A stretch of DNA of 64,000 bases from Candidatus Hecatella orcuttiae (GTDB lineage: Archaea > Thermoproteota > Bathyarchaeia > Hecatellales > Hecatellaceae), in NCBI GenBank assembly GCA_002011035.2, contig MTLY02000003.1, forward strand, positions 384,001-448,000, given 5' to 3'. A program made the position numbers and the translations under genes. How positions within the stretch are numbered: the first letter of the stretch is position 1; the number at the start of each line of letters is the position of its first letter. Below, piece by piece: positions 15,920 to 31,794 of this stretch. The notes beneath the pieces were generated by a model that was not told the DNA's origin, did not search any database, and worked only from the letters and a program-made list of their open reading frames with translations.

Positions 15920-16012
15920 GCGGCCGTAGTCTAGCTTGGTTAGGACATCAGCCTGCCAACCTTGGGAGGCAGAACGCTGAGGACCCGGGTTCAAATCCCG
16001 GCGGCCGCACCA
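15920..16012 (+). tRNA. tRNA-Gly(GCC) with 16-nt intron at 37/38 (15959-15974), encoded CCA
   Basis: Acceptor GCGGCCG/CGGCCGC, anticodon GCC at 15955-15957, T-loop TTCAAAT; central helix CTGC/GCAG with 3-nt bulges CA^A and AA^C. Confidence 0.95.
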
Positions 16013-16037
16013 TTCTAGAGCTGAATAGGTACTTTTT

Positions 16038-16184
16038 TCATCGGTCTACTAGCGGCACCCATTTTAACGTCTCCTTCAGGGCTTGGCTGAGGGCTTTCAG
16101 TTGGTGGTCTTCCAGTTCTTGAGGGTTGATGTATACTCTGGCCGGCTGGGATAGGGCTTCTCCCGCGAGGATTTTCTTCAGCAA
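16038..16184 (-). pseudogene. Probable C-terminal remnant of a tyrosine integrase
   Basis: Frame LLKKILAGEALSQPARVYINPQELEDHQLKALSQALKETLKW directly preceded by an in-frame TGA, next to the tRNA 3' end; the resemblance to archaeal integrase tails is from memory. Confidence 0.4.
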
Positions 16185-16395
16185 TCATGCTTCTCATAGG
16201 CTCGGAGCCATTAAGGTGGTTGAAGACTGATCATGTTCACTCTAAACCAACTGCCTACATTAGGTATCTGTGGACTCTGCGGACTTGAATTCATCGCAAG
16301 GTTAATACTATCATGTGGACTAACTTGTGCAGGTTCTTTACCATACCAAGTTAGCCGGGACGAACGAAACCGTTGCCGAATGGTGGATGGTTTTT

Positions 16396-17625
16396 TTAAA
16401 TTCCAGCAGCTATTTTGGCTTCTGTCCATGCTTCAAAGTATTTGTCCCATATCGGTGGATCTGGGTGTTCCCAGTTGTAGAAGATTCCTTTCTCCAACAG
16501 GTCTTCAGGTTTATCCAATCCCAACAGTTTTATTATTTCGGGGTCCGCCAGTTCCCATCCTTTTACATTCGTGGATGCGTAATAGTAAACGTTGGTCAGA
16601 AATTGGCCTGTTCGAGGATCTAAGAAGGCATTTATGTAGTCATGGGCAAGCTCGTAGGTTCCTCTTTCTGGAGAGCCTTCTCCCACATTCATAGCGTAAG
16701 GCCAGATGAACAGAGCCTCTCCCGTCCTGTAATTGGCTCCAGGTGTAAGCCCCAGATAGACCACGTCCAAACCTTCAGCCAACCCTGCAGCGTACAATTC
16801 CGTCCACATGGTTGCAATGGCTACTTCGCCTTCTTTAAGACTTGCAAAAAGCTCATACTGGTCATCGTAGATAATTTTTGCTTGCTTAAACGCTTTCATC
16901 ACCGCATCTTTCCAAGCTTCTATCTGGTCATCAGTAGGATTTTTGAACTCTTCCACTGTAAACAATGCGTCGAACATAGGCCCAGCAATTTCAGAAGGAG
17001 CATCGTACATGGCCGTTCCTACCTCTGCATATTTTGGATCCCACAAGCACGACCAACTGTCAGGCTCTGGTAATCCCGCATCCCGGATTAGGTCTCTTCT
17101 GTAAATAATCGAAGTCATTCCCATATCCGTCACCAGCATATAGAGTTGGCCGTTGTGTCTGCCGTATTTTTCAACTAGTGCTTTAAAGAAAGGATGTACA
17201 TCTTGGTAGTTAGGTATCAAATCTAAGTCTATCGGCTCTAGCGCATCAAACTCCAAATATCTCTTGAAATGAGTCCAATAGCCGCCGAAGTTGGAGGCGT
17301 CAAACCTATCTCCAATCGCTATCCTTGCCAACGCTGAATCTTCATCAGGAAAAATGACGTGCGATACCTTTACATCCGGATGTTTTTCCCTAAACGCAAG
17401 CCACAGTTCTTCAACATCATACCCAGCCCACGTCCAAACTATTATCTCATTAGCTTTCGGTGGTGGTACTGGAGTTGGCGTAGGAGTTGGTGCGGGTGTC
17501 GGGGTTGGGGCTGGAGCGGGCCTTGTGGCCTGCCAAGCGGCGTAGCCGCCCACACCGGCCACCACCGCCGCAACCACGGCGGCGATGCCGTATTTCAGGG
17601 CCTTTCTTCGAGATTCATTACTCAT
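16396..17625 (-). CDS. PotD/PotF-like polyamine ABC substrate-binding protein with Tat-like signal and Pro/Thr linker
   Basis: SRRKALKYG plus hydrophobic helix, PAPTPT repeats, WTWAGY, PDSWSCLWDPKY, AHDYINAFLDP. Confidence 0.8.
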   Translation of the reverse strand: MSNESRRKALKYGIAAVVAAVVAGVGGYAAWQATRPAPAPTPTPAPTPTPTPVPPPKANEIIVWTWAGYDVEELWLAFREKHPDVKVSHVIFPDEDSALARIAIGDRFDASNFGGYWTHFKRYLEFDALEPIDLDLIPNYQDVHPFFKALVEKYGRHNGQLYMLVTDMGMTSIIYRRDLIRDAGLPEPDSWSCLWDPKYAEVGTAMYDAPSEIAGPMFDALFTVEEFKNPTDDQIEAWKDAVMKAFKQAKIIYDDQYELFASLKEGEVAIATMWTELYAAGLAEGLDVVYLGLTPGANYRTGEALFIWPYAMNVGEGSPERGTYELAHDYINAFLDPRTGQFLTNVYYYASTNVKGWELADPEIIKLLGLDKPEDLLEKGIFYNWEHPDPPIWDKYFEAWTEAKIAAGI

Positions 17626-17902
17626 TTTTATATATCTCTCCTAAAAGCGGCTGTTTATTATTCCGGTTCAGATTATATATAAATATTACGGTTTACTGAA
17701 CGATGTTGCTAAGATTTTTTGTTGGGCCGGATTTGCAAGCGTAATTTGCGGACTGCAGGGGTCAAGCTGATTGCTTCATGATTTAGGATCCTATTTATAA
17801 GTCTCTCTGTCACTGTAGAAACCCGGAAAACTCTCGACTAGGTTTTTCTGATTTTTCTAACTAAAGTCAACTTCTCAAATGCCTAGCTTTGAGTTGGCGT
17901 CT

Positions 17903-18679
17903 TCAGGCTGATATTCTTTCGATCATCCTCATCAAAAACGCAAGTCCGATGGCAAAAGACAATATGATGGAGGACATAGCCGTTAAGATTGGCACGAATT
18001 TTGGCAGTTTCATCAGCAAAGAGTAAATATACACAGGCGCTGTTTGCTCTGTCCCGGCAAGGAAAACCGCGAGGGCAACATCTTCCCACGAGATGATAAA
18101 GGCTAAAATGGCGGCCACCGCCACTCCTGGCATTATAAGAGGCAACGTTACTTTCCGAAAAGTGGTGAATTTACCCGCGCCCAAATCCATGGCAGCCTCT
18201 TCAAGACTTATGTCAAGAGCTATGAATCTGGAGGTTAAGACCAAGGTAGTGTAGGGTATGGTGATTAGAATATGACCTATAATGATGACTATTAACGATG
18301 GGTTTACCCCCATTTTTAATAAAAAGGACATCAAACTGAAACCCATGATGATGTAAGGTGTCACCATGGGCATCAGCAAGAGCCCTGTGAAAATTTTTTT
18401 CCCAGCGAAGTTTGTGCGCGCTAGTGCATACCCTCCGCAGATTCCGAAGATTACAGCGGCTCCCGTGGTAACGGAAGCGACCATGAGGGAGTATTTAACG
18501 GCATTTATAGCGGCTGGAAATCGGAGAAGTTCGATGTACCATTTGAGGGTGGGGAAGTTTCTTAAGGGCAGAGTAGAAGTTTCGTTGAGGGATAGCAGTA
18601 ACAGTATGGCGATGGGGAAAAATGTGAGTATCAACAAGAATCCAAGTACGACAATGAACATTATACTCGATTTCGTCAT
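17903..18679 (-). CDS. Polyamine ABC transporter permease (PotC-like)
   Basis: TLKWY, LEEAAMDLGA EAA loop, about 6 TM segments. Confidence 0.85.
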   Translation of the reverse strand: MTKSSIMFIVVLGFLLILTFFPIAILLLLSLNETSTLPLRNFPTLKWYIELLRFPAAINAVKYSLMVASVTTGAAVIFGICGGYALARTNFAGKKIFTGLLLMPMVTPYIIMGFSLMSFLLKMGVNPSLIVIIIGHILITIPYTTLVLTSRFIALDISLEEAAMDLGAGKFTTFRKVTLPLIMPGVAVAAILAFIISWEDVALAVFLAGTEQTAPVYIYSLLMKLPKFVPILTAMSSIILSFAIGLAFLMRMIERISA

Positions 18680-18680
18680 T

Positions 18681-19604
18681 TTAGAGACTCTCCATCAGCT
18701 TCCTGAAGCCGATTCTCCGATAAAGTAGGAAGACCGCTATGAAAGTTATAATCAGCAGATAAACAGTGAAAGCCGCGGCTACATCCCACCTAAACCCCTT
18801 GAGGAAGAAATCGTAGATCAGGTTTCCAAACAATATTCCGGTTCTGCCTCCCACTACTGCTGGAGCTATGAATTCTCCCATCGTCGGAATAAACACGAAC
18901 AAAACTGCTACGAAAACTCCGGGTAGACTCAGGGGAAAAGTAACTTTTAGGAATGTTGTAATGGGCGAAGCGCCCAGATCGTCTGAAGCCTCCAGCAAAA
19001 CTCTGTCTATTTTTTCCAGCGACACGAATATCGGCAGAATCAACCAGGGAAACCATGTGGCAGTTAAAACCAGCCAAACAGAAAATAGGTTGTACCCCAA
19101 TAGTTTGATGGGCTCGCTTATTAAGCCGAAATATAGGAGCAATGAATTTATTACTCCTGTGCTGCCTAACATCAACCGCCAAGCCAGCAATATCAGCATA
19201 TAGGTGGCAAAATAAGGCGCTTGAAACAGGAATAGAACAGTATACTTATTTTTTAAAACTCTAAAGGCTATAAAATAGGCTACAACATACGCGAACAAAA
19301 CGGATGAAGCTGTAACGGTAACCGCTATAAAAAACGTTCGAAGTAGAAGTCTGGCATAATCCGTTCGGATGAATAGTTTTGCATAATTGCTGAGTACGGG
19401 AAAATTAACAACAGTTCTTGTCACAGGACTTAATTCAGCGAAGCTCAAGATTAACACTGAAAAAACAGGAATGAAAAATACGATGATAATCCATAAGTAA
19501 GTGGGTAGAACTAGCAAAAGATCTTTTAACCTTGAGTTGGTCTGTGCCGTGAAAAAATTCCGGAAAGATTTCTTTATACTCATATTACCACTTCCGTTCG
19601 ACAA
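18681..19604 (-). CDS. Polyamine ABC transporter permease (PotB-like)
   Basis: GVINSLL, LLEASDDLGA, FPLSLPG, VFIPTMGEF. Confidence 0.85.
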   Translation of the reverse strand: MSNGSGNMSIKKSFRNFFTAQTNSRLKDLLLVLPTYLWIIIVFFIPVFSVLILSFAELSPVTRTVVNFPVLSNYAKLFIRTDYARLLLRTFFIAVTVTASSVLFAYVVAYFIAFRVLKNKYTVLFLFQAPYFATYMLILLAWRLMLGSTGVINSLLLYFGLISEPIKLLGYNLFSVWLVLTATWFPWLILPIFVSLEKIDRVLLEASDDLGASPITTFLKVTFPLSLPGVFVAVLFVFIPTMGEFIAPAVVGGRTGILFGNLIYDFFLKGFRWDVAAAFTVYLLIITFIAVFLLYRRIGFRKLMESL

Positions 19605-19624
19605 TGGCCTCCAATGGATTTAGC

Positions 19625-20680
19625 CTAGGTTATCAACTTGGAGTCTTTCTTATTCCAACCGATTTTTACCTTCTCCCCAATTCCAAAAATGCCTTCCATG
19701 CCGGGACTGGGCGCTACAACTGAAATGGAGGAACCATTTTCCAGCAAAACTCTGTAGGTGACGACTCGGCCCTGATAATAGGCCTCTTTAACTTCTCCAG
19801 CGAATATATTATCCAACGCGTTTAACTTTCTTCCGATGAAAATTTTCTCCGGCTTGATGGAGACTAAGACTGATCCTTTGGATAGCTGACACTCAGGTGT
19901 GACGGTGATTTTCCCCAGATTATCGACTTCCACTGCCCCATTCTCATACCTCCCTTTGAAAACGTTAGTTCCCCCAATAAAATTAGCCACAAACTCAGAG
20001 TTAGGCTGTTCATAAATCTCGATAGGCGAGCCGATCTGCATGATCTTTCCGGCTTTCATTACGGCTATTTTGTCGGACATCGTTAGAGCTTCTCCTTGGT
20101 CGTGAGTGACGTAGATGAAGGTAGTGCCGACTTCACGTTTAATTCTCTTCAGCTCGACAATCATTTCCTCCCTAAGTTTTAGATCTAATGGTCCCAAAGG
20201 TTCGTCTAGAAGCAATACAGTTGGTTTATTAACCAAAGCCCTTACAATGGCAATTCTTTGTTTTTCGCCGCCGCTCAATTGGCTTATTTTCCTCTTTTCA
20301 TAGCCTGGAAGTCTAACGAGGTCTAACATTTCTTTAACTCTTGCTTTGATTTCGTTTTCCGGTATTTTTTTTATTTTTAATCCGAATGCTATATTTTCAT
20401 AAACGTTGAGGTGAGGGAATAGAGCTAAGCTCTGAAAGACTAGGTTTGTAGGCCTCTTAAAGGGGGGTACATCCGCCATAGGTTCTCCTTCGATGAGTAT
20501 CTCCCCTTCGGTTGGCTTCTCAAAGCCGCTGATCATTCTGAGTATAGTAGTCTTTCCACATCCGGAGGGCCCTAAGAGAGAAAAAAATTGTCCCTTTTCC
20601 ACTTGAAAGGAAACATCGCTAACTGCAACAACATCTCCGAATTTCTTAGTTACGTTTTTCAGTTCAACATCGATCTTCAT
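19625..20680 (-). CDS. Polyamine ABC transporter ATP-binding subunit (PotA-like)
   Basis: GPSGCGKT, LSGGEKQR, LLLDEP, VTHDQ.EA, TOBE-like tail. Confidence 0.9.
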   Translation of the reverse strand: MKIDVELKNVTKKFGDVVAVSDVSFQVEKGQFFSLLGPSGCGKTTILRMISGFEKPTEGEILIEGEPMADVPPFKRPTNLVFQSLALFPHLNVYENIAFGLKIKKIPENEIKARVKEMLDLVRLPGYEKRKISQLSGGEKQRIAIVRALVNKPTVLLLDEPLGPLDLKLREEMIVELKRIKREVGTTFIYVTHDQGEALTMSDKIAVMKAGKIMQIGSPIEIYEQPNSEFVANFIGGTNVFKGRYENGAVEVDNLGKITVTPECQLSKGSVLVSIKPEKIFIGRKLNALDNIFAGEVKEAYYQGRVVTYRVLLENGSSISVVAPSPGMEGIFGIGEKVKIGWNKKDSKLIT

Positions 20681-20796
20681 CTTATCGGACCATTACTGAT
20701 ATATACAGGAAGAAGAATATAAAAATAATCGGTCAAGAAAAAGGCCAAAACATGGAAAGATTAAAACAAACTATGTTCCATTAGTGTTTATGAAAA

Positions 20797-22185
20797 GTGG
20801 AGGATACGCCTCATATGATTCTTTCGTTAGATGAAATTTATAGGAGGACTGAAGATGGTCCGATAGTGGAGGAGGAATATTTCGACAAAAAGCTTTTGCC
20901 CAGAAAACTTCGAGAACTAGCAAAGGAATATGATATTAATTACAATCCGGAAGAGCCCGTTCCAACTGACGACAAGTTAGCTGACGACGTTTTTGAGGCG
21001 GGGAAAAAGTTACTGTGTGATGTAGGTATTCTGTGTGTGGACACAGGTAGGTTGATAAAGTTCTCTGAGGATGAAATTAAAGAAGGACTTAAAGCAGCTC
21101 CAAATAAAATAACCATCGGGCAAGGTGAGAGATCCCGAGAAATAACTGAGAGAAAAGCAGAAGACAAAAAGATACCTTGGCTTGTTCCCGGCCCCAGCGG
21201 AATGCCTATATCAGAGGACTTGGCTAGCGTGATAGCTCAATCCATCGTTCAAGAACCGTTAGCAGAAGGTTACTGGACTCCAACTATTACGAAATATGGA
21301 GGGATGGAGGTAAAACTGCATTCTCCGTTGGAAGTTCTTGCATCAAGATATGAAATTATATCGGCCAAGGAGGGAGTCAGAAAGGCTGGTAAAGAAGGGC
21401 TTCCCATTGTTGGAGGAATGACAGGGTTAAGTCCAGCTGGATTCATCGCTTCTATATTTAATGGAGGATTTACGAGAGGGGACTGTCTTCTCGTAAGCTG
21501 CATGAACGAGTTGAAAATCAACTACGATATCATGACGAAAGTATGGTTCGTTTCAAAATGTAGCGACGTAAACCTGATGTATGATGCCACTCCTCTATTA
21601 GGCGGAATCGCAGGTGGACCGGAAGGCACTGCTTTAGTCTCAGTTGCTCAGGAAATAGAATGCCTGTTGCTGGGAGCAGACCTAAGCGGTGGTAACTCAA
21701 TCGATATTTGGTCTGGAACAAGCTCAGGCAGGAAGACCATGTGGGCCTCTAATTTATTCTTGAACGCCATGAACCGGAACGTCAACGCAATAGAGTATTG
21801 CTACCACTTTGCCGCAGCAGGACCTTGCACAGAAATGCTTCTCTATGAGGGGGCAGCGAAAACCATAAGTGTGGTGGCTGCAGGATACGATTTTCACTGT
21901 GGTCCTTTGGCCTTGAGAGCTGGGAAGGAAGATTACATTTCTCCGTTAGAATTTAGGCTCAGCTGCGAAGTCGCCCATGCCATGGCTGGAATTAAAAGGG
22001 AAAATGCCAATTACTTGATAAAAGAATTATTAGCAAAGTTCGAAGATAAAATTCAAAAACCGCCTCTTGGTAAAAGCTTTACCGAGTGTATGGACTTAAC
22101 TACGCTTCAGCCTTCCAAAGAATGGCAGGCTATCTACGAGAAAGTGAAAAAAGAATTAGAAGACTTGGGAATAAAATTCAAATGA
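20797..22185 (+). CDS. mtmB: MtmB-family monomethylamine:corrinoid methyltransferase homologue lacking pyrrolysine
   Basis: VPTDD.LADDVFEAG, GI.C.DTGRLIKF.EDEI, AGPCTEM, GKSF.EC.D; uninterrupted 462 aa, Val codon GTT (21409-21411) at the aligned Pyl site. Confidence 0.85.
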   Translation: MEDTPHMILSLDEIYRRTEDGPIVEEEYFDKKLLPRKLRELAKEYDINYNPEEPVPTDDKLADDVFEAGKKLLCDVGILCVDTGRLIKFSEDEIKEGLKAAPNKITIGQGERSREITERKAEDKKIPWLVPGPSGMPISEDLASVIAQSIVQEPLAEGYWTPTITKYGGMEVKLHSPLEVLASRYEIISAKEGVRKAGKEGLPIVGGMTGLSPAGFIASIFNGGFTRGDCLLVSCMNELKINYDIMTKVWFVSKCSDVNLMYDATPLLGGIAGGPEGTALVSVAQEIECLLLGADLSGGNSIDIWSGTSSGRKTMWASNLFLNAMNRNVNAIEYCYHFAAAGPCTEMLLYEGAAKTISVVAAGYDFHCGPLALRAGKEDYISPLEFRLSCEVAHAMAGIKRENANYLIKELLAKFEDKIQKPPLGKSFTECMDLTTLQPSKEWQAIYEKVKKELEDLGIKFK

Positions 22186-22246
22186 CCTTTGTATAAGGGG
22201 CGGTCAAAGAAAGTAGCAGGCTTGTCGCGATGCCGCTGTTTCTGGT

Positions 22247-23590
22247 TTACGAACCCCGTATATTTTTGAGAGTGTCATAAGTAGCCTGTATGGTCTTTTG
22301 TATATCTTCCGGCTCATGCATCGCCGAAACCATCCACTCCTCAAACCATGCTGAACCGCTCGGTATTATTCCTCTATTCAACATGTTGATCCAGTATTTA
22401 TTCCACATCGCCGCGTCGCAAGCTGAAGCTTCTCTGTAGTTTTTTGGAACCTTGTCCAATCCGAAGAAGATGCATCCCATCATGGTGCATCTGCCCACAG
22501 CGGCTTTTATACCTGTATCTGCTATGGCGTCTACAACTCCCTTGTACAACTCCTCGCCAAGGTTGTTAATTTTCGCATAGGCATTAGAGGTTAATACCTT
22601 TTTCAGGCAGGCTAAGCCTGCAGCTGTTGAAAGAGGATTGGCGTTATAGGTTCCGTAGTGCACAACACCGCCCAAAGGAGTTATCATCTCCATGTATTCT
22701 CTCTTTCCGCCGAACGCGGCCAGAGGTGATCCGCCGCCGATGGCTTTGGCGAAAGTTACCAAGTCGGGTTCAATACCGTAGAGTTGGCTTCCGCCCCCCT
22801 CAGCTAGATTGCATCCTGTCTTAACTTCATCCAATATTAACAAAATGCCATATTCATCGCAAAGCCTTCTAACTTCCCTGAAATAGTCTTTTTCCGGGGT
22901 TATGATCCCGCTGTTGGTAAGCACAGGCTCGGTTACTATCGCCGCAACTTCGTTTTCATGCTTTTTCAACACTCTTTCCAAGCCGTCGGCATCGTTAAAG
23001 TGAACCACCAAGGTCTGTTCGACGTTCTCCTTCGGTGTGCCCAGCGAGTCGGGAGTGGATGCAGGGTTATGTATCGATCCTAACAGGATGCGTCTTCTGG
23101 GTTTATCGCTTATCAGCAGCACATCGTTTGCTCCATGATAGGAGCCCTCCATCTTAACCACCTTAGTCCTCCCTGTGATTCCTCTGGCAAGCCTAACGGC
23201 ATAGAAAGTTGCTTCCATTCCCGTGTTCGCAAAGCGGAGCATCTCAACATACGGGTACCTTCTCATTATCTCTCTCGCCAATTCATCGGCCCCTTCCCCT
23301 TGAAATCCCAGCAACGTCCCCCGCTCCGCCTGCTCTTTTATCGCTTCAACTATGATGGGGTTAGCGTGACCAGCAGTCATGGCTCCGTAGGCCAGACAAT
23401 GGTCTACATACTCTCTTCCGTCTAAGTCCCATAGCTTGCCGCCCTTTCCCCTTGCCATGTAAAGCGGATAGGGCTTAAAGAATTGGATAGCTGTATTTAC
23501 TCCTCCAGGAATAATCTGAGATAGTTTTTCGAAAAACGCCTTTGAAGCTGGGGTGTTTTTAATATATATATCCTCTTCAGCCAATGCCAC
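22247..23590 (-). CDS. Class III PLP-dependent aminotransferase (GSA-aminomutase-like)
   Basis: IPGGV, DLDGREYVD, GSYHG, LILDEVKTG, TFAKAIGGG (PLP lysine), GTYNANP. Confidence 0.85.
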   Translation of the reverse strand: MALAEEDIYIKNTPASKAFFEKLSQIIPGGVNTAIQFFKPYPLYMARGKGGKLWDLDGREYVDHCLAYGAMTAGHANPIIVEAIKEQAERGTLLGFQGEGADELAREIMRRYPYVEMLRFANTGMEATFYAVRLARGITGRTKVVKMEGSYHGANDVLLISDKPRRRILLGSIHNPASTPDSLGTPKENVEQTLVVHFNDADGLERVLKKHENEVAAIVTEPVLTNSGIITPEKDYFREVRRLCDEYGILLILDEVKTGCNLAEGGGSQLYGIEPDLVTFAKAIGGGSPLAAFGGKREYMEMITPLGGVVHYGTYNANPLSTAAGLACLKKVLTSNAYAKINNLGEELYKGVVDAIADTGIKAAVGRCTMMGCIFFGLDKVPKNYREASACDAAMWNKYWINMLNRGIIPSGSAWFEEWMVSAMHEPEDIQKTIQATYDTLKNIRGS

Positions 23591-24033
23591 GTAAATTCAC
23601 CGTTTTCATTTAACAATCGATGTTTATTTAACATTTTCGACAGGGGGTAGAGGCGGGTCTTTTATTTAATTTTTCAGTTAAAAGGCATCGTCTATGTGCC
23701 GCAATTAATTTATTTCTATTCATAACAAAAATAGGCTCTCTCTTTACCAATTTGCCTTTTATCTTGTCTATACCATCAATTTTCTACTTAGAACTGTGCA
23801 GCTTGATGCATATCTCGGCATAAGTCAATGGACAAACTCCCCTTAAACAACAAGCATTGAGAAAAATATCAAACCTAACTTCAAGATAGACAACAGACTC
23901 CGAATAATTTTTTGGTTAAATTTCTCTCAAAGAAGAAAGGGGGAGGTAATTTGTTAACCCTGCGCATTGCTGAGCTTCATTTCATTTGATCTGCCTGCGG
24001 TGTTGGCAGGATTTTTGATTTGTCGGAGACTGC

Positions 24034-25440
24034 TCAAACTTTCGAGAGTTTCTCGAGGCGTTCTACACAATTAATTTTGATGCCGAGCAGTTCAGCGATC
24101 CTAACTTTAGCTTCGAGTCCTTTCGCTGCACCCGGTAAACCAGTTATAACACCGATGTCAAGTTTTTCCCTAAGCTTTCTCATAGTAAACTCATCACAAA
24201 GCTCTATTGAGGAGACACCTAGCTTTTTAGCGACGTAATCCTTCGCTTCAGGTAGTCTCATTTTCTTTTGCAACTGCATCCTACCAATCAGGTCGCCTGA
24301 TGTTCTGATGCTGCCTATGCCACCGGCTACCAGATGCCCAATGGGCATTCCAATGCAGTCTCCGACACCCACCTAAATGCCATCGACGCCGGCTATCTCG
24401 ATCATAGCTTTGTTCGCTCTAGTTACTGTATCCAACGGTGGTGTTTCTAACATGGGCACGCCGCCTACACCCATTCCCATGTTGGGGTGAACAGGGATAG
24501 TCGCTTCTCTCACGCATGCCTTGGTAAACGTAACCGCCCTGGAGAGATTCCATGGGAAAGTGAGGTGGGGTTTTGTATTTATCACAGGTCCAAATATGTC
24601 GACACCCGCTTTTTCCGCTACTTTAAGTTGTTGATGCGGCCACATTCCAGCCAAACGTTCTCCTGCATATTTCAATTCCGTGTGAAATCCGTGTACAGCC
24701 TCGGTAGCCATACCCATCTGGACAGCTAGGTCGGGGTACACCTTTTTCAATGACTCTGTAGCCGTAAGGGCTGCATAAAAGTCAGGATCTCCCGCCGCTC
24801 CTACTGTATCGATATTTATTCCATCCACGCCTACTCTTCTGAGATGTTTAGCTACATATATTATGGCATCATGACATTCTCGAGCAGCGCCCTCCATAGA
24901 TTTCCTCGCTTCGTCGTTCTTTCCTTCTCTGATCAGAGAGATCGGTTCAGGCCATTGACCATCAGGCTTATAGAAATAGCCTAAGTTGGGCATAGCCATG
25001 AATTCTAGAGGACTGATCGACGTGTGCAGAGTATTGTGGATAACATTCGCCAAATAGCTCACTATTACCTTTGCAGGCTTAAAGCTTCCATCCGATTCAG
25101 GAAATTGTAGTATATCAAGTCCAAGCACCCTTTCAGACAGCGCTCCTTGAGCAATGGAACGTTCAATCGGCATACCTAATCCACTAGTGCCAGAGTCAAT
25201 CCAGAAAGTCGAGCCTCCTGCATCAGCGGACAGGACGACCTCGCATCCATGTTTTACAGCCACAACCTTATTGGCGTCGATGATAATTTCATATAATGTT
25301 TCCAGATCTTCGCCGGTTAATTCGGGTATTTTCGCCCTTTCTGCAGCGTCTTTTGAACCCAATTCTAGGTCGTCTTTGATCTGTTTACCCGTCATGGTGA
25401 TCAGTCTACCATCGCCTCTTCTCGTCAAATGTTCTGGCAT
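24034..25440 (-). CDS. mtbB: Dimethylamine:corrinoid methyltransferase MtbB with in-frame amber (pyrrolysine) codon at 24373-24375
   Basis: Two abutting in-frame ORFs join as ...[22 protein letters not shown]...; TAG is codon 356 of a 468-aa product ending at TGA 24034; SD AGGAGGTGA upstream. Confidence 0.92.
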
Positions 25441-25476
25441 ACGTTCTCACCTCCTTTCTATTTTTATTTGTGAGCA

Positions 25477-26127
25477 TCATTTTTTTAGAAGGCAAGTGCG
25501 GGATGCAAGGAGTCTTTTAGCTTTAACTACAGCATCCATTGCGTCGGCACCCCATTCGTCGGCGCCGATCTCTTTTGCATGCAATTCGGTTGTTGCTCCT
25601 CCGCCCACCATTACTTTAACGTCATCACGAACTCCTGCTTCCTTCAGAGCATCAATTACCTCTCTTTGGGCGATGGCGGTTGTGGTCATGAGAGCGGAAC
25701 AACCTACAAATGCGGGTTTGTGCTTTTTAACTGCCTCTACAAATTTTTCAGCAGCAACATCTCGACCTAGATCGATGACATCGAATCCTTGAGCTTCCAG
25801 CATCGTGGCCACTATACTCTTACCGATGTCATGAATGTCGCCTTCAACTGTACCGATTATGAACTTGGCTTTTTCACCTCTTTTCTTCCTAGGCACTTTT
25901 TTAAGCAAAACGTCCGCAACCTTCTTGATGGCCTCGGCAGAAAGAACTACTTGTGGAAGAAATATCTCTGACCTACCGTATAGATCTCCTACCTGCCTGA
26001 TAGCCTCAGAGGCATGGTCCAACGCCCTTAAAGGTTCAATACCTGCTTTCAGACAAGCCTCAGCGATTTTAACAGCGCCCTCAACATCTTGATTTAAGAT
26101 CGCATTATAGAGCTTATCTAGTTCCAA
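25477..26127 (-). CDS. mtbC: Methylamine corrinoid protein (MtbC-like)
   Basis: B12-binding GTVEGDIHDIGK, SALMTTT, VMVGG; directly upstream of mtbB. Confidence 0.88.
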   Translation of the reverse strand: MELDKLYNAILNQDVEGAVKIAEACLKAGIEPLRALDHASEAIRQVGDLYGRSEIFLPQVVLSAEAIKKVADVLLKKVPRKKRGEKAKFIIGTVEGDIHDIGKSIVATMLEAQGFDVIDLGRDVAAEKFVEAVKKHKPAFVGCSALMTTTAIAQREVIDALKEAGVRDDVKVMVGGGATTELHAKEIGADEWGADAMDAVVKAKRLLASRTCLLKK

Positions 26128-26520
26128 AATTATGCACCCCCTACTTTTTTATATTAAAGTTTTTTTTAAACATAATGTTTCACCCTCTTTTTGGATCTTT
26201 ATTTCAAAATCACTAGCATCTGTCTTCACTTTACAACTTGTTATCGCGGATGTAGCAAATAATTCATTAGCCTACACCGCGGCCTGAAAATATCACTTCT
26301 ACATACTTATCGATGTAGTCCCCTAATTTAGTGGTGTTCATCATAGTCTCGTTGAGTTTTCTCGATCAAAAAATAAGTGAAACGAGTTTTCGGTCTTCTC
26401 GAGGAAGTACGGATATGGTTAAGAATCATAATTCGGCGAGAAAAGGAGTTCCTGTCGGCAGTTTCGCTGGAGAAAAGCATGTCGCCTCAATAATAAGTGG
26501 CAAGGAACTTTTACTAATTA

Positions 26521-26943
26521 TTATGCGCCCAGTTTTTTAACTGTTAATGCGCCTGTGGGGCACCATTCAACACATGCCGGAGAACCTTGACATAGGTCGC
26601 ATATCAGCGGTTTTCGACGTGGTTCATTCATCCTTATCGCCGAGTATGGACATTCTTCAACGCACAATTTGCAGCCTGTGCACTTTTCCTCATCGAGTAT
26701 AACAGCCCCGGTTTTCTCATCTTTTTGGAGTGCTTTCACAGGGCAGACTTGAATACAGGTGGCTTCTTCGCATTGAATGCACGCAACAGGATACACGAGA
26801 GTAGGCGGATAGCTTGTTGCAATGTGGATTCTGGATACTTTCGGATTAAACACTGAGGCTTTTTTGAATGAGCAGATAAGCTCGCATGTTTTACAGTCGG
26901 TGCATTTTTGGCCATCAATCAACAAGCGGATGGAGATAAGCAT
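26521..26943 (-). CDS. 4Fe-4S polyferredoxin subunit associated with AOR
   Basis: Four Cys clusters (CTDCKTC, CIQC..C..CP, CTGCKLC..CP, CDLC..C..CP); start near 26943 after GGAGGTG is uncertain. Confidence 0.85.
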   Translation of the reverse strand: MLISIRLLIDGQKCTDCKTCELICSFKKASVFNPKVSRIHIATSYPPTLVYPVACIQCEEATCIQVCPVKALQKDEKTGAVILDEEKCTGCKLCVEECPYSAIRMNEPRRKPLICDLCQGSPACVEWCPTGALTVKKLGA

Positions 26944-26951
26944 CACCTCCT

Positions 26952-28793
26952 TCACGTTACTAGGTCGGTAAGTTCCAATTCGATAAGCTTCTCCCTCGTA
27001 GGTTCGCCTTCTCGGTTCCACCCTCTCAGTTCATAGTACTCATCGAGCAGCTTAGTCATGTCGTCGGAGGTAACTTTGTGCCCCTTGGCCGGCCCTGAAG
27101 GCAGAGGTTCCCCGGTGAACCGCTTGGGTAAACAGTCGTCTTTCCGCGTAAAGCCTTCGCGAATGTTAAACATGCGGATCAAATTCCATACACGCTCACC
27201 TAGCTTCATAAATTCATCTGCACCTCCCTTCCACCCGGTGGCCAGCGACAACAACTCCGCATAGTGCTCAGGTTGAAGGCCTGTTCGGCTGAAATCGCAG
27301 CAGGGAAGCGTGCAAACAGCCGTAAGCCAATCCTGCTCCCACTTGACGATTTCAGCCTTACCCTTGAGCGAAAGCCGCTCCACGGTGCCGGAGGGTCCGG
27401 GGATTCCCTCAACCTCGTACGCGATCGGCCATCCCCGCTCATGGCAGCCGCCCCTGTCAGCTGTGGCTAGGGCCAGCGCCATTCCCGGGGCTCCCCTGGG
27501 AGGCCACGCCGGCGTCTCCAGCCCCTTGATGCTGACAGCTAAATCTAACGCTCGGCCGCCTATCTTTTCCGAAGCTTGCTTTACGCCTTCAGCCATCAGG
27601 TCGCCTATCCCTTCTCGGCGGGCTATTCTTTCAACAAGCTCAAGCACAGCTTTGGAGTTCCCAAACTTCGGGTTAACCCCTTGGAAATCCTCCGAGGTCA
27701 GAATTCCCTTTTCAAAAAGCTCCATGAAGAAACCTATGACGCCGCCGGTGGATATGGTATCTAACCCCAGTTCATCGCACAGGTAATTTGCGTAAGCCAC
27801 AGCGTCCAGATCCGTGATGCCGCAGTTGGCTCCCAGCAGGCCGGTGGTTTCATATTCCACACCGTCCACCACGGTACCCGCGTAGGGGCCTTTCTTTATC
27901 ATCAGAAGGTGGCCGCATCGAATGGGGCAGGAGAAGCAGGCAACCTTTCTAAAGCGGACGGCCTTGGACTGAATTCTGCCTGAAAGCTTTTCCGCCCCCC
28001 GGATGCTTCCGTCTTGAAAGTTTCTTGTCGGGAAGAAACCTTCAGAGTTGGCGAAATCCACAGACCCCGCGGTTCCGTATTCCGTCCACGTCGCTCGCAC
28101 AGCTTCGCTTTCAACCAGAGCCTTGTGCAGCTTTCTCGCAGCTTTCACAAATTCCTTTGGATTGGCCACCTCCACAGGCTTTGTTCCTCGAACGGCCACA
28201 GCCTTCAGATTCTTTGAGCCCATCACGGCTCCTAGGCCTCCCCTCCCCGCCTGCCGGTAGTCACAGCCGACGCACGCAAACCTGACAAGTCTCTCTCCCG
28301 CCGGTCCGATGCACGCTGTTTTCACCTCGTTGTCGCCGAGCTCTTTTTTGACGGCAAGGGCGGTCTGGGTTATGGTAAGACCCTGAAGGTGGCTGGCGTT
28401 TTTGATTTCCACATGCTCATTGTCGATCCAGATGTAGCTGAGTTTTTCAGCCTTCCCCGTGAGCACCAAGGCATCGTAGCCGGCGTATTTTAGTTCCTGG
28501 CTGAAATAGCCCCCAACATAGCTGTCGCAAAAGGTTCTCGTGAGGGGGGACTTGGAGACCACGATGCCCTTCTGAGCTGGAGCCAGCGTACCTGTCAAAG
28601 GCCCTGTGCTGAATATGAATATGTTTTCAGGGCCAAGGGGATCAGCCTTGGGGGGTAGCTCCTTATACAATATCGCTGCTGCTTGCCCTTTTCCACCGAC
28701 CAGTCTCCTAGCAACAGATAAATCCAATGGCTGCCGGAGTATTCGCCCTGTGGTTAAGTCTATGCAAAGAATATTCCCCTGATAACTATCCAT
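26952..28793 (-). CDS. aor: Tungsten-dependent aldehyde:ferredoxin oxidoreductase
   Basis: KSPLT, GRGGLGAVMGSKNLKA, CFSCPIRC, EYET, GLDTIS, RGGCH. Confidence 0.9.
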   Translation of the reverse strand: MDSYQGNILCIDLTTGRILRQPLDLSVARRLVGGKGQAAAILYKELPPKADPLGPENIFIFSTGPLTGTLAPAQKGIVVSKSPLTRTFCDSYVGGYFSQELKYAGYDALVLTGKAEKLSYIWIDNEHVEIKNASHLQGLTITQTALAVKKELGDNEVKTACIGPAGERLVRFACVGCDYRQAGRGGLGAVMGSKNLKAVAVRGTKPVEVANPKEFVKAARKLHKALVESEAVRATWTEYGTAGSVDFANSEGFFPTRNFQDGSIRGAEKLSGRIQSKAVRFRKVACFSCPIRCGHLLMIKKGPYAGTVVDGVEYETTGLLGANCGITDLDAVAYANYLCDELGLDTISTGGVIGFFMELFEKGILTSEDFQGVNPKFGNSKAVLELVERIARREGIGDLMAEGVKQASEKIGGRALDLAVSIKGLETPAWPPRGAPGMALALATADRGGCHERGWPIAYEVEGIPGPSGTVERLSLKGKAEIVKWEQDWLTAVCTLPCCDFSRTGLQPEHYAELLSLATGWKGGADEFMKLGERVWNLIRMFNIREGFTRKDDCLPKRFTGEPLPSGPAKGHKVTSDDMTKLLDEYYELRGWNREGEPTREKLIELELTDLVT

Positions 28794-28840
28794 ATCTTAT
28801 CATTACCAATTATCCGTTTAAAAAATTTAGTGGTAGAGAA

Positions 28841-28993
28841 TCGGCGCCCCCCCTGCCTACACCATGGCCTGAATATCCCTTCTACATACCCATTGGTGTA
28901 GTCCTCTCTCTGATAGCATTCGTCGTAGTCTCCTTGATAACTCGTCCAATACCAGAAGAAAGGCTGCAGAGATTTTTCCCGACCAAAAAGTAG
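28841..28993 (+). pseudogene. Orphan C-terminal fragment resembling a sodium:solute symporter
   Basis: IPIGVVLSLIAFVVVSLITRPIPEERLQRFF; no N-terminal part because it abuts the aor upstream region. Confidence 0.4.
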
Positions 28994-29274
28994 AAAATGA
29001 AAAGACTTTCCAACCCCCTCAAGAAAGTATACGTATGGCTGAGAATGATTGGTTCGACGAAAGAAAGAATCCCCTCAGCAACTTCGCCAGAGAAAAACAG
29101 CTACTCTAAATTTACCACGGACTACGGGGCTATGCAGGGTTTTTAAGAAACCTGTCAAGATTCCGAATGGCATCGGTGAAATCGATGAAGAATTATGTTA
29201 AATATGGGTAAGGCTGATAAACGCTTGATGAAGGTGTTTTATTAATTCAAAGCAGACTAATCTTAAGAATACGA

Positions 29275-30450
29275 TTATATTTTTGACAACTCTTTTTCTC
29301 TCAGGATTAGTACGGCTCCAGTGAACTGGTTGTCTTGATTTTCGATGGGGGTAGTGTAAATGAACGTTCTCAGAGGGCTTCCTCCTTTCTTCAGGAACTC
29401 AAATTCATGAACTTCATCGAACCTATGTTTCCGCCTGTTTTTTATGCTATGGAGAATTTTTCCCCATCTCTGACTGCAGAACTCCTCAAGATTCTTGCCC
29501 ACCATCTCCTTTGATGTGTATCCGAGCATCTCAGCAGTCCTTGGGCTGACATATGTAGTGTTGAACTCTGCGTCTACAAGCCATAAGCCTGTCTCTCCTT
29601 TCATGGCTGACGTCCTCTTTGGGGGAAGTTTTGTTTTTAACAGGGTATCCACAAGTTTAAAGGGGTCCGCTGAGCTCCACATTTCCTCGAAGAATCTTTG
29701 GTATAGCCTTGTCCAACCTTTGCTGTTCAGCCATATATCTCTACAGCAAGAGTTCGATGGCCATCTTTCCATGTCTATTGCTATTCCGACAATGGTCCAT
29801 TTATCATCAATAATCATCGTGTGAAAGGGGATTCTGGAAATTTGTCTTAACTCTGCAAACTTATTGCAGATTTCAACCTCGCGGATGATTGTCTCGTCAA
29901 CCTCCGTAAGTATCCTCACCGGCATCCTGTGAGAGCATTTTCTTAATATGTCAACGAGACCATGATACTCCGCCAGATAAAGACCTGCCCCTGGCACCAT
30001 GTAGTCTATTTTGTTTTCCGCCGATTTACATAATGCGATCTTTTTACTATAGACTTGTTTCATTCCAGTCAAAATTTGTATGCCTTCTCTTTCTTCTCTC
30101 TCTTCTTCTTTCTCCTCACTTACTGCTTTCAGAGCGTCGACGAGCCTAGCTTTGTTAGATGCTATTCTGTTCACTCTTTCTCTTTCAGCCGCTAATAACC
30201 AATCTACAAGCATCTCAGGTTTAACGGCTTTAAATTTTTTAGGCCGTTCCAATAAAGACTGGATAAGTTCCCGTCCTTCAAGCTTCTTAAGTATGCGGTA
30301 GACTTCAGGCCGAGGGATTCCTGCCCGACGGGCTAACTGGTTTGCGGTTAGGTCTGAGCTATATTTTATTAGTGTAACCAGTACTTTAATGTCGTTTCCA
30401 GATAAGCCGAACTCGCTTAGGTTCTGTACAATTTCTTGTTCTTTACTCAA
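29275..30450 (-). CDS. TrmB-family regulator with C-terminal PAS domain
   Basis: LSEFGLS...GIPRPEVYRILKKLE HTH; PLD-like IIDDK effector domain; PAS-like GLWLVD..TTYVSPRTAEMLGY. Confidence 0.8.
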   Translation of the reverse strand: MSKEQEIVQNLSEFGLSGNDIKVLVTLIKYSSDLTANQLARRAGIPRPEVYRILKKLEGRELIQSLLERPKKFKAVKPEMLVDWLLAAERERVNRIASNKARLVDALKAVSEEKEEEREEREGIQILTGMKQVYSKKIALCKSAENKIDYMVPGAGLYLAEYHGLVDILRKCSHRMPVRILTEVDETIIREVEICNKFAELRQISRIPFHTMIIDDKWTIVGIAIDMERWPSNSCCRDIWLNSKGWTRLYQRFFEEMWSSADPFKLVDTLLKTKLPPKRTSAMKGETGLWLVDAEFNTTYVSPRTAEMLGYTSKEMVGKNLEEFCSQRWGKILHSIKNRRKHRFDEVHEFEFLKKGGSPLRTFIYTTPIENQDNQFTGAVLILREKELSKI

Positions 30451-30506
30451 AATAATGTCCTTAACATTGTTATCGATGTTGTAACTTAAAAAGGTTACAC
30501 TACTTT

Positions 30507-30821
30507 ATGACAGATGACCGATTTAATACCCTTAATAAGAGAATGTTGGATTTGAAGATCGAGAAAATCGGAAAAACCACAACCGTAGCTGTGCTAATTT
30601 TGATATTCCAAGCCGGCTCCGTGAGGCATAGGGACATAGCTAAACATGTTCCAAGCAGAGGGGCTTTATCTTCAGCTCTGAACTCTCTGCTGGAAGAAAA
30701 ACTCGTAACACGTCAAGTGAACACCGAATCCATGCCAGCTCAAACCTACTACACCATAACCGAGAAAGGCAGGGAAGTGGCGAGAAGATTTGATGAAATC
30801 ATAGATATCTTAAAAGGCTGA
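30507..30821 (+). CDS. HxlR/MarR-type winged-helix regulator
   Basis: LSSALNSLLEEKLVTR....P..T.YTITEKG. Confidence 0.7.
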   Translation: MTDDRFNTLNKRMLDLKIEKIGKTTTVAVLILIFQAGSVRHRDIAKHVPSRGALSSALNSLLEEKLVTRQVNTESMPAQTYYTITEKGREVARRFDEIIDILKG

Positions 30822-30906
30822 AAAACATTCCCTTTCTTGTAACTATGATATCTGACAAACACAAGTTTTTGAGTATCCGACAATCATTAGATTATAGGTC
30901 TTAGAA

Positions 30907-31443
30907 ATGAATAAAACCTCCATTATTCACAATATTCAAAGTAACGAGCAAATGAAGATGAAAAATTTAAGATACGAACAGGAGATCATCGAGTTTTTCT
31001 CACTTTTTAGAGAGAATAAAGCGATCAGCATACCTCTTGAGGCCTTCATGGATTTCAAGAAGGCTTTAAAGGACTGTTTTGGCTCCGGGGGAGTTGTAAT
31101 CTTAAGTGAGATGGGAAAAGGCCATGGCATATATTCAACCAAGCGTTTACTGGATGAACATCCTAATAGACCCAGCTTGCTAGAAGTCATAACCAGCTAC
31201 AAGCAAAAGGAGGGATGGGGGAACATGGAATTTAGAATGAAACCTTCCGAAGCGGAAGTTATTATAACTAAAAGCTTCGAGGCGGAGTATCATGAGAGGT
31301 CCAAAGAACCTGTTTGCCACTTCTTGAGAGGCTACCTAGAAGGGGTCATAAGCCAAATCGTCGGCAAAGAGATAAAAGTTTCGGAAATCCGCTGCAAAGC
31401 AACAGGGAACGAGACCTGCGTTTTCAAAATACAACCGCCATAG
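30907..31443 (+). CDS. V4R (4-vinyl reductase) domain protein
   Basis: GWG, SFEA, PVCHFLRGYLEG, E..CKATG..TCVF. Confidence 0.85.
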   Translation: MNKTSIIHNIQSNEQMKMKNLRYEQEIIEFFSLFRENKAISIPLEAFMDFKKALKDCFGSGGVVILSEMGKGHGIYSTKRLLDEHPNRPSLLEVITSYKQKEGWGNMEFRMKPSEAEVIITKSFEAEYHERSKEPVCHFLRGYLEGVISQIVGKEIKVSEIRCKATGNETCVFKIQPP

Positions 31444-31603
31444 GGCGTATTGATAGTTCTATCATCATAGTTTTAGTAGTTTCCAGCAAACATCTATGAC
31501 CTGTTAATCTAAGCCCAACAGCATTTAAAAGAGAAAATTATAAAGAATTTAATCTCCAGCCAGCACCCATAAGTAAAATGGGTGAGGAACCGAACCTGAA
31601 GTT

Positions 31604-31704
31604 TGGAGCCCCGGGCGGGGTTTGAACCCGCGACCTTAGCCTTACCAAGGCCACGCGCCACCAGGCTGCGCCTACCCGCCCTTGCTTCGTAAGGGAACCG
31701 GGGC
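31604..31704 (-). tRNA. tRNA-Thr(GGT) with non-canonical 24-nt intron at position 8/9 (31673-31696), encoded CCA
   Basis: After removing the intron: acceptor GCCCCGG/CCGGGGC, D-stem GCGC/GCGC, anticodon GGT (31644-31646), T-arm GCGGG-TTCAAAC-CCCGC, T73; BHB geometry at both junctions. Confidence 0.9.
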
Positions 31705-31794
31705 ATCTGCTCCGGGGCTTCAGGCTACGCTTTAAGTGTAGGATAAAATGAATATAAGAATTAAGTTCAACTCCCCAGGGGGATGGGTTCTCGG

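Follow-up and report, generated by a model that had tools for sequence, protein, structure and literature searches.

The window analysed here, a stretch of 64,000 nucleotides from the archaeon Candidatus Hecatella orcuttiae (class Bathyarchaeia; contig MTLY02000003.1, positions 384,001 to 448,000 of the forward strand), contains a gene of the MtmB family, the family of the monomethylamine methyltransferases that carry pyrrolysine (Pyl) at the catalytic site, in which Pyl is absent. The gene lies on the forward strand within 462 open codons that run from GTG 20797 to the stop at 22185, and its likely start is ATG 20815, giving a protein of 456 aa (20815-22185): GGAGGA stands at 20799-20804, ten bases ahead of this ATG, the public gene call (P0002) is the same 456-residue protein, and the orthologues share the same first methionine. 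It is flanked on one side by a divergent operon for a PotABCD-like ABC importer and on the other by a convergent aminotransferase gene, and the whole module is enclosed in a low-GC island. Scans for sigma-70 promoters, a model not applicable to an archaeon, and for terminators gave counts at the level of shuffled sequence.

Judged by profile match and predicted structure, the protein is a full-length member of the MtmB family with the MtmB TIM-barrel fold. The PF05369 (MtmB) profile matches it with 347.4 bits (E 1.6e-103; gathering score 25 bits) over positions 5-450 of 450, and phmmer finds the chains of Methanosarcina barkeri MtmB in PDB 1L2Q and 1NTH at E 4.5e-68; an NCBIfam scan of the protein gave no match. 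An AlphaFold2 (AF2) model, built from an input alignment of 79 sequences and with a mean pLDDT of 96.9, superposes on 1NTH with TM scores of 0.97/0.96 and a root-mean-square deviation of 1.2 Å over 452 columns, at 30% identity. In a fold search with this model, Pyl-free proteins of the MttB superfamily are found only at a distance (TM 0.5-0.6). The initial annotation, made from the sequence alone, had described a full-length MtmB homologue with no internal stop, a description that agrees with the open frame and with the extent of the profile match.

In the column of Pyl202, the protein has valine, encoded by GTT at 21409-21411 (forward strand), a codon that differs from TAG at all three bases. 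The residue is Val205 when counted from GTG 20797 and Val199 when counted from ATG 20815. The phmmer block around the site is free of gaps (query 116-218 against chain 113-215) and sets agkeglpiVggmtglspag over agrpgmgvXgpetslsaqg of M. barkeri, with Val on the X that denotes Pyl202. The TAG column of the genome's own Pyl-containing MtmB is aligned with the same valine. The placement of Val at the Pyl site had been claimed earlier from a Methanosarcina segment, which proves to be the M. barkeri segment of this alignment; both alignments bear it out. A comparison of a structural model with M. barkeri MtmB had been proposed along with the claim, and its outcome is the superposition on 1NTH given above.

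A search of 5.8 billion proteins returned seven further orthologue clusters at 51-80% identity, with the next drop to about 40%. One of these clusters consists of proteins named Hadesarchaea/Hadarchaeum and another holds a protein of a class-mate genome (G229), and the clade of eight clusters spans Bathyarchaeia and Hadarchaeota. An exhaustive search of 50%-identity representatives gave 1046 matches at E <= 0.001 and 205 at E <= 1e-30, of which only one (P0008, 58%) exceeds 42% identity. A FastTree phylogeny of 157 rows was built from the 12 paralogues of this genome, the seven orthologue clusters and, after removal of 11 rows below 400 aa, 138 of the 149 other representatives. In it, the eight orthologues group as one branch with an SH-like support of 99, nested in a 41-row group (support 96) to which the TAG-bearing MtmB of this genome also belongs. 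Such a phylogeny of Pyl-free MtmB proteins had been suggested in the initial annotation; MtqB, a Pyl-free homologue taken up below, is not on the tree. When genome contigs were scanned with the MtmB-like protein, one distant partial match was found, in a metagenome-assembled genome of Prolixibacteraceae. The clade is one more uncharacterised branch of a large known group.

Within this clade, the residues around the site have been replaced in a consistent manner. The Pyl column of the eight orthologue clusters reads V, V, V, V, I, I, V, L, and it is followed by a GGMTG motif (21412-21426, forward strand) that is invariant in all eight, the Met of which (21418-21420) stands in the column of M. 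barkeri Glu205. Six columns, X (the Pyl site), E, E, E, Q and Y, are common to M. barkeri MtmB and the genome's own Pyl-MtmB; the last five are M, L, D, Y and F in the protein studied here, and across the clade the six are V/I/L (8/8), M (8/8), L/I/T/F, D (7/8), Y (7/8) and F (8/8). All of them are located at or directly after barrel strands of the AF2 model. The pocket columns of the Pyl-free clade are thus remodelled yet conserved. Among 139 Pyl-free representatives at large, the Pyl column holds 19 residue types (L 23, I 17, G 16, V 14 and others), a tally from which TAG genes are absent by construction, as gene callers split them.

Three lineages were available for comparison of loci, namely the window itself, a pair that is nearly one sequence twice (L042/L043, 75% identical to the window's protein) and a set from one organism (L013/L044/L104, 58%). 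Between the window and L043, the proportions of nonsynonymous and synonymous differences are pN 0.145 and pS 0.84, the latter saturated, and the near-identical pair L042 and L043 gives a dN/dS of 0.15. The MtmB-like gene is under purifying selection and does not show the degenerate active site under relaxed selection that the initial annotation had named as an outcome speaking against its view.

The valine marks a different enzyme and not a failure of amber decoding, because the genome encodes PylS together with TAG-bearing genes of MtmB, of MtbB (two copies) and of MttB. The assembly (1.75 Mb, 3 contigs, 97% complete; marked as archaeal by an intron-bearing tRNA, TFB, CdvA and S19e) holds 12 MtmB-family genes, one with a single in-frame TAG (729 bits) and 11 without any stop, whose Pyl columns read F, V, L, I, Q, I, I, G, Q, W and P; the studied gene is at most 36% identical to the other paralogues. 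Both MtbB genes carry one TAG at the same residue and are 57% identical to each other, one at G000:C1:341461-342840 and the other, a second, diverged copy, in the window at 24034-25440 on the reverse strand, where PF09505 matches both halves and an Rfam PYLIS_2 match lies at 24276-24375. There are four MttB-family genes, one with TAG. It had been proposed that a Pyl-type MtbB lies about 2 kb from the gene and that a change of substrate is a better explanation than a lack of amber decoding; the first is seen directly in the TAG of 24034-25440, and the second is in line with the decoding genes, the V/I/L column (8/8) and the purifying selection. A gap of 443 bp (23591-24033) separates this mtbB from the aminotransferase gene. 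Given the position of a diverged MtbB in the low-GC island beside a Pyl-free MtmB module, it may be asked whether plain dimethylamine is its substrate.

Pyl-free MtmB genes as such are common rather than exceptional, as an internal stop is absent from 70 of the 74 MtmB-family matches listed for 301 class genomes. The expansion to 12 copies is specific to this lineage, because PF05369 has no match in any of 13 other genomes of the same family that were searched. The remainder of the methyl-transfer set comprises 14 strong corrinoid-protein genes, six genes of MtaA/MtbA type (URO-D-family second methyltransferases, MT2), two for MtrH and one for MtrE, and mcrA was not found in the 97% complete genome.

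The aminotransferase gene (22247-23590, reverse strand) encodes a HemL-family class-III enzyme (PF00202), and 61 bp separate its stop from that of the MtmB-like gene. The linkage of the two is conserved: the aminotransferase lies directly downstream and convergent in the window and in five of five orthologous loci from the two other lineages, at 84% or 74% identity to the window's protein, and an aminotransferase above 41% identity occurs in none of 86 other MtmB-family loci. Many of the 91 loci compared have only 1.5 kb of flank, which is enough for a gene starting at most 100 bp away. A role as housekeeping HemL is ruled out, as the protein scores 432 bits against the hemL equivalog TIGR00713, below the cut-off of 527.3, the true hemL of the genome (613 bits) is located elsewhere in a hemA-hemB-hemL-hemC-cobA operon, and a motif is changed from GGVNSPVRAF to GGVNTAIQFF; the two proteins are 41% identical, and the module's has an 8-residue insertion. 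Its subfamily, of about 20 clusters at >= 70% identity and with bacterial members at about 50%, is wider than the MtmB-like clade.

Within the class, the aminotransferase is found in 5 of 401 genomes. One copy (G320) is on a 2.1 kb contig, so that its context is uninformative. In two others, G294 and G326, the orthologues (74-77% identical; L106:9648-16238 and L107:4994-17401) stand beside a hydantoinase/dihydropyrimidinase-like amidohydrolase, a carbamoylase (TIGR01879, 409 bits) or carbon-nitrogen (CN) hydrolases, and amino-acid (APC) permeases. These clusters, which also hold a second HemL-like transaminase, look like an uncharacterised route from cyclic amides to amino acids in Bathyarchaeia. 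Besides HemL, the nearest solved relatives of the enzyme are beta-amino-acid transaminases and D-phenylglycine aminotransferase. Such neighbours and relatives point to a beta- or otherwise unusual amino acid as the probable substrate of the aminotransferase, and the substrate of the methyltransferase may therefore be an N-methylated form of such a compound.

On the other side of the MtmB-like gene, the importer operon occupies 16396-20680 on the reverse strand and is identified by library matches and by orthology with L043: an ATPase (19625-20680, 78% identical to its L043 counterpart), two permeases (18681-19604 and 17903-18679; 72% and 68%) and a binding protein (16396-17625; 76%). The importer is orthologous in L042/L043 and is thus present in two of the three lineages. 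By sequence, the nearest solved relatives of the binding protein are PotF and a polyamine-type binding protein of Listeria, at E of about 1e-9. In L043, a Hadarchaeota-like locus, a second corrinoid gene and a Pyl-free MttB-family gene flank the module (L043:7704-9866, reverse strand, for this pair); the MttB-family gene encodes 499 aa without a stop. Importer, MtmB-like gene and aminotransferase gene adjoin a second pair of methyltransferase (MT1) and corrinoid genes in two lineages, and the family of this second MT1 differs between them.

A corrinoid protein is the presumed methyl acceptor, and in the orthologous loci its gene lies directly upstream, overlapping the start of the MtmB-like gene; a corrinoid gene is also directly upstream in 39 of 60 other MtmB-family loci with enough upstream sequence. 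In the window, the nearest corrinoid gene is 3.3 kb away and heads the mtbB operon (25477-26127, reverse strand; B12-binding domains, TIGR02370 209 bits). Its product is 58% identical to the corrinoid protein beside the other mtbB and only 43% identical to that of the clade, and it may be the nearest candidate methyl acceptor, possibly shared.

The low-GC island spans about 15 kb (about 16013-31600), starting right after tRNA-Gly(GCC) (15920-16012) and ending before a tRNA-like element (31615-31672, reverse strand). GC is 0.39-0.48 inside (0.55 in an aldehyde:ferredoxin oxidoreductase gene) versus 0.53-0.61 in the flanks. The MtmB-like gene itself has a GC of 0.44 and a third-position GC (GC3) of 0.42, versus a GC3 of 0.62-0.75 in housekeeping genes of the window, and the other 11 MtmB paralogues have a GC of 0.52-0.59. 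Every methyl-amine gene of the window is inside the island, which contains the importer, the MtmB-like gene, the aminotransferase, the Pyl-MtbB with its corrinoid protein, a 4Fe-4S protein with the aldehyde:ferredoxin oxidoreductase (AOR; together 26521-28793, reverse strand, by library matches), a TrmB-PAS regulator and a V4R protein. The AOR is a candidate sink for an aldehyde formed by the aminotransferase; none was found in L042, L043 or L104, and it is seen only in this genome. By its composition, the island looks to have been acquired from another organism. Neither an integrase in the island nor an attachment-site direct repeat of >= 11 nt from the tRNA-Gly region in 16061-33000 was found, the latter search giving only one 13-mer on the opposite strand. 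The L043 lineage as direct donor is not supported, the GC of its module being 0.48-0.53 versus 0.41-0.48 here.

The tRNA-like element is a partial Rfam tRNA match (36 bits, model positions 9-63) at which ARAGORN called no tRNA. By eye, 31615-31700 (reverse strand) resembles a tRNA with anticodon GGU interrupted by what would be a non-canonical intron, a short insert near position 7/8 that sets off the 5' acceptor half. Outside the island, a 559-aa protein (40259-41938, forward strand) has a spermine/spermidine-synthase domain only in residues 274-444, and its N-terminal half has no Pfam match at E <= 1e-6.

Taken together, these features favour, at somewhat better than an even chance, a Pyl-independent, corrinoid-dependent MT1 that acts on an imported N-methyl amine or amino acid other than monomethylamine and whose product passes to the aminotransferase. 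The PotABCD-like importer would bring the methylated compound into the cell, where the MtmB-like MT1 would use it to methylate a corrinoid protein in the Co(I) form. This protein would have to be borrowed, since the clade's own corrinoid gene is missing here, and that of 25477-26127 is the nearest candidate. An MT2 of MtbA/MtaA type and then the Mtr complex may carry the methyl group into the tetrahydromethanopterin (H4MPT)/Wood-Ljungdahl route of the Mcr-less host, a methyl route that has been described for Mcr-less Bathyarchaeia with Mtr in PMC9635834; according to PMC8407382, mtmB, mtbB and mttBC are among the genes acquired and duplicated in some lineages of Bathyarchaeia. The demethylated primary amine would be deaminated by the adjacent HemL-family aminotransferase, and the resulting aldehyde could be handled by the nearby AOR. 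Most plausibly, the substrate would be a beta- or omega-amino acid in its N-methyl or betaine form, or else a related amine. In this chain, the family membership, the conserved non-Pyl columns, the purifying selection, the linkage with aminotransferase and importer and the MT2, Mtr and Pyl genes are observations, to which the modelled fold conforms; what we infer from them is in which direction the methyl group moves, which class of substrate and which corrinoid partner are used, and what part the AOR plays.

Several points weigh against this proposal. The clade's own corrinoid gene is missing at the window, where the divergent importer operon is in its place, and the best match to the clade's corrinoid protein in the whole genome is only 49.5% identical; the enzyme may therefore be handicapped here. 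The initial annotation had counted on a neighbouring corrinoid protein, which does exist at 25477-26127 but belongs to the mtbB operon. The Pot importer is not seen in the L104 lineage within the visible 13.5 kb. In two of the four other class genomes with the aminotransferase (G294 and G326), no MtmB-like, corrinoid or Pot gene occurs within about 10 kb of it, contexts that rule out a strict coupling of the aminotransferase to the MtmB-like gene. The five M. barkeri columns are presumed to line the Pyl pocket with catalytic roles, which was not confirmed in the review that was searched. Moreover, to our knowledge, the known Pyl-free enzymes of this kind use quaternary amines, the tertiary-amine products of which could not be used by an aminotransferase, and we know of no Pyl-free precedent for the secondary-amine substrate that a single demethylation to a primary amine would require.

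A bolder version of the proposal, which we regard as unlikely, sees the island as horizontally acquired and as sufficient in itself for breaking down, completely and anaerobically, a beta- or omega-amino compound with several N-methyl groups, such as the dimethyl or betaine form of beta-alanine, gamma-aminobutyric acid (GABA) or a polyamine. The diverged second Pyl-MtbB and the Pyl-free MtmB-like enzyme would work in sequence on one carbon skeleton with one shared corrinoid protein, and aminotransferase and AOR would then convert the resulting primary amine to an acid. If true, the island would provide the first case of a Pyl enzyme recruited for a substituted amine and of a Pyl-free MtmB with a secondary amine as substrate.

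Among the rival explanations, an MtqB-type enzyme for tetramethylammonium and/or choline has to be considered first. Tetramethylammonium and choline are demethylated in vitro by MtqB, a Pyl-free MtmB homologue from Methanococcoides methylutens Q3c (PMC13044021, March 2026); the initial annotation's statement that no substrate is established for Pyl-free MtmB is thereby superseded. The authors of that paper regard MtqB as the first function for Pyl-free MtmB proteins, whose existence, they add, was recognised years ago and whose range includes Asgard archaea and bacteria. In the one enzyme of this kind to have been characterised, the predicted pocket is described there as rich in sulfur-containing and aromatic residues, and the clade studied here has Met, Tyr and Phe in its pocket columns; with a Pyl-MtbB 2 kb away and a Pyl-free MttB beside the L043 module, a demethylation chain is conceivable, the aminotransferase acting later, for example on the way from choline to ethanolamine, or being unrelated. 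However, the clade is a separate branch in the tree, its importer is Pot-like and not of the betaine/choline type, and the tight aminotransferase linkage has no counterpart in the MtqB system as far as it is described in the part of PMC13044021 that was available. None of the best 120 listed matches, down to 34% identity, is named Methanococcoides, a criterion that assesses orthology by name only, and the same is true of the 20 best listed matches of paralogue M1. An MtqB-type function is, on balance, improbable here.

It is equally doubtful that the protein is a corrinoid-dependent methyltransferase for an O-methyl or S-methyl donor, or one working in the methylating direction, with the aminotransferase and importer outside its pathway. 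The diversity of the family, with its 205 clusters and the 19 residues seen in the Pyl column of 139 representatives, leaves room for such a function, and the aminotransferase is also found without an MtmB-like gene. Nevertheless, both members of known function, MtmB and MtqB, use N-methyl donors, and the convergent pair has been kept in three lineages of only 58-75% protein identity whose surroundings are otherwise rearranged.

Less probable still is a decaying or non-catalytic copy that was stranded without its corrinoid partner after horizontal transfer, for which the absence of the clade's own corrinoid gene and the foreign base composition of the island could be cited. No RNA run on record was found to contain 20600-23700, which speaks for neither side. 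The frame is intact, all clade-invariant residues are kept and pN is far below pS. Corrinoid sharing, moreover, seems normal in this genome, as for 6 of its 12 MtmB paralogues neither the adjoining 200 bp nor the operon contains a corrinoid gene. The weakest case is that of an isofunctional monomethylamine methyltransferase without Pyl, which has the full MtmB fold and family membership on its side and is nonetheless very improbable: Pyl202, the E/E/E/Q/Y columns and an adjacent corrinoid gene, which characterise a genuine monomethylamine MtmB, are not found here, two of the three acidic columns common to both Pyl-MtmBs are hydrophobic, the genome keeps a TAG-bearing MtmB and PylS, and an importer and aminotransferase would make no sense for methylamine, the product of which is ammonia.

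If the MtmB-like protein does demethylate an imported N-methyl compound for the aminotransferase, the fixed three-part module, with its importer and aminotransferase beside the methyltransferase, makes a second Pyl-free MtmB substrate unusually accessible, in a family in which only one such protein, MtqB, has a known substrate, compared with 205 clusters (50% identity, E <= 1e-30). The module narrows the search to methylated compounds that yield a primary amine or amino acid on demethylation; further handles are the high-confidence structural model and the close orthologues, which come from two phyla. Knowing the substrate would reveal a further source of methyl groups for subsurface archaea that are not methanogens and have an Mtr-fed Wood-Ljungdahl pathway, and would help to explain why 12 MtmB-family genes are present in one genome of 1.75 Mb and none in the 13 family relatives searched. 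The value of the gene lies in a tidy, testable module rather than in a surprise.

Among known systems, MtmB1 of M. barkeri (PDB 1L2Q, 1NTH, 1TV2) is the structural reference, belonging to the same Pfam family over its full length, at a TM score of 0.97, and presumably sharing the chemistry, the transfer of a methyl group to the Co(I) of a corrinoid protein. It differs in that the protein studied here has Val for Pyl202, Met for Glu205, Leu for Glu229, Tyr for Gln333 and Phe for Tyr335, and in that its gene has no in-frame TAG and no adjacent cognate corrinoid gene and is linked to an importer and an aminotransferase. Within the genome, the other 10 Pyl-free MtmB paralogues are of the same family and likewise without internal stops, but they are at most 36% identical, fall on other branches of the tree and have a GC of 0.52-0.59 instead of 0.44.

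The same logic, a Pyl-free paralogue of a Pyl enzyme that has specialised on a substituted methylammonium compound, is seen in the Pyl-free MttB superfamily, represented by MtgB, which acts on glycine betaine. Further Pyl-free members of that superfamily are MtcB, MtpB and MtyB. Yet these proteins belong to another Pfam family (PF06253), with about 12% identity in structural alignment. As for Pyl-free MtmB clades linked to an aminotransferase, no description was found in the consulted portions of the literature on non-Pyl MtmB, Hadarchaeota MtmB and Bathyarchaeia Pyl methyltransferases. The closest precedent for an active methylammonium methyltransferase is the MtqB/MtqC system, likewise built on a Pyl-free MtmB homologue; as described in PMC13044021, MtqB has its own corrinoid gene and feeds methanogenesis, whereas the enzyme studied here is set apart by a host without Mcr, by the lack of a corrinoid gene of its own and by its aminotransferase partner.

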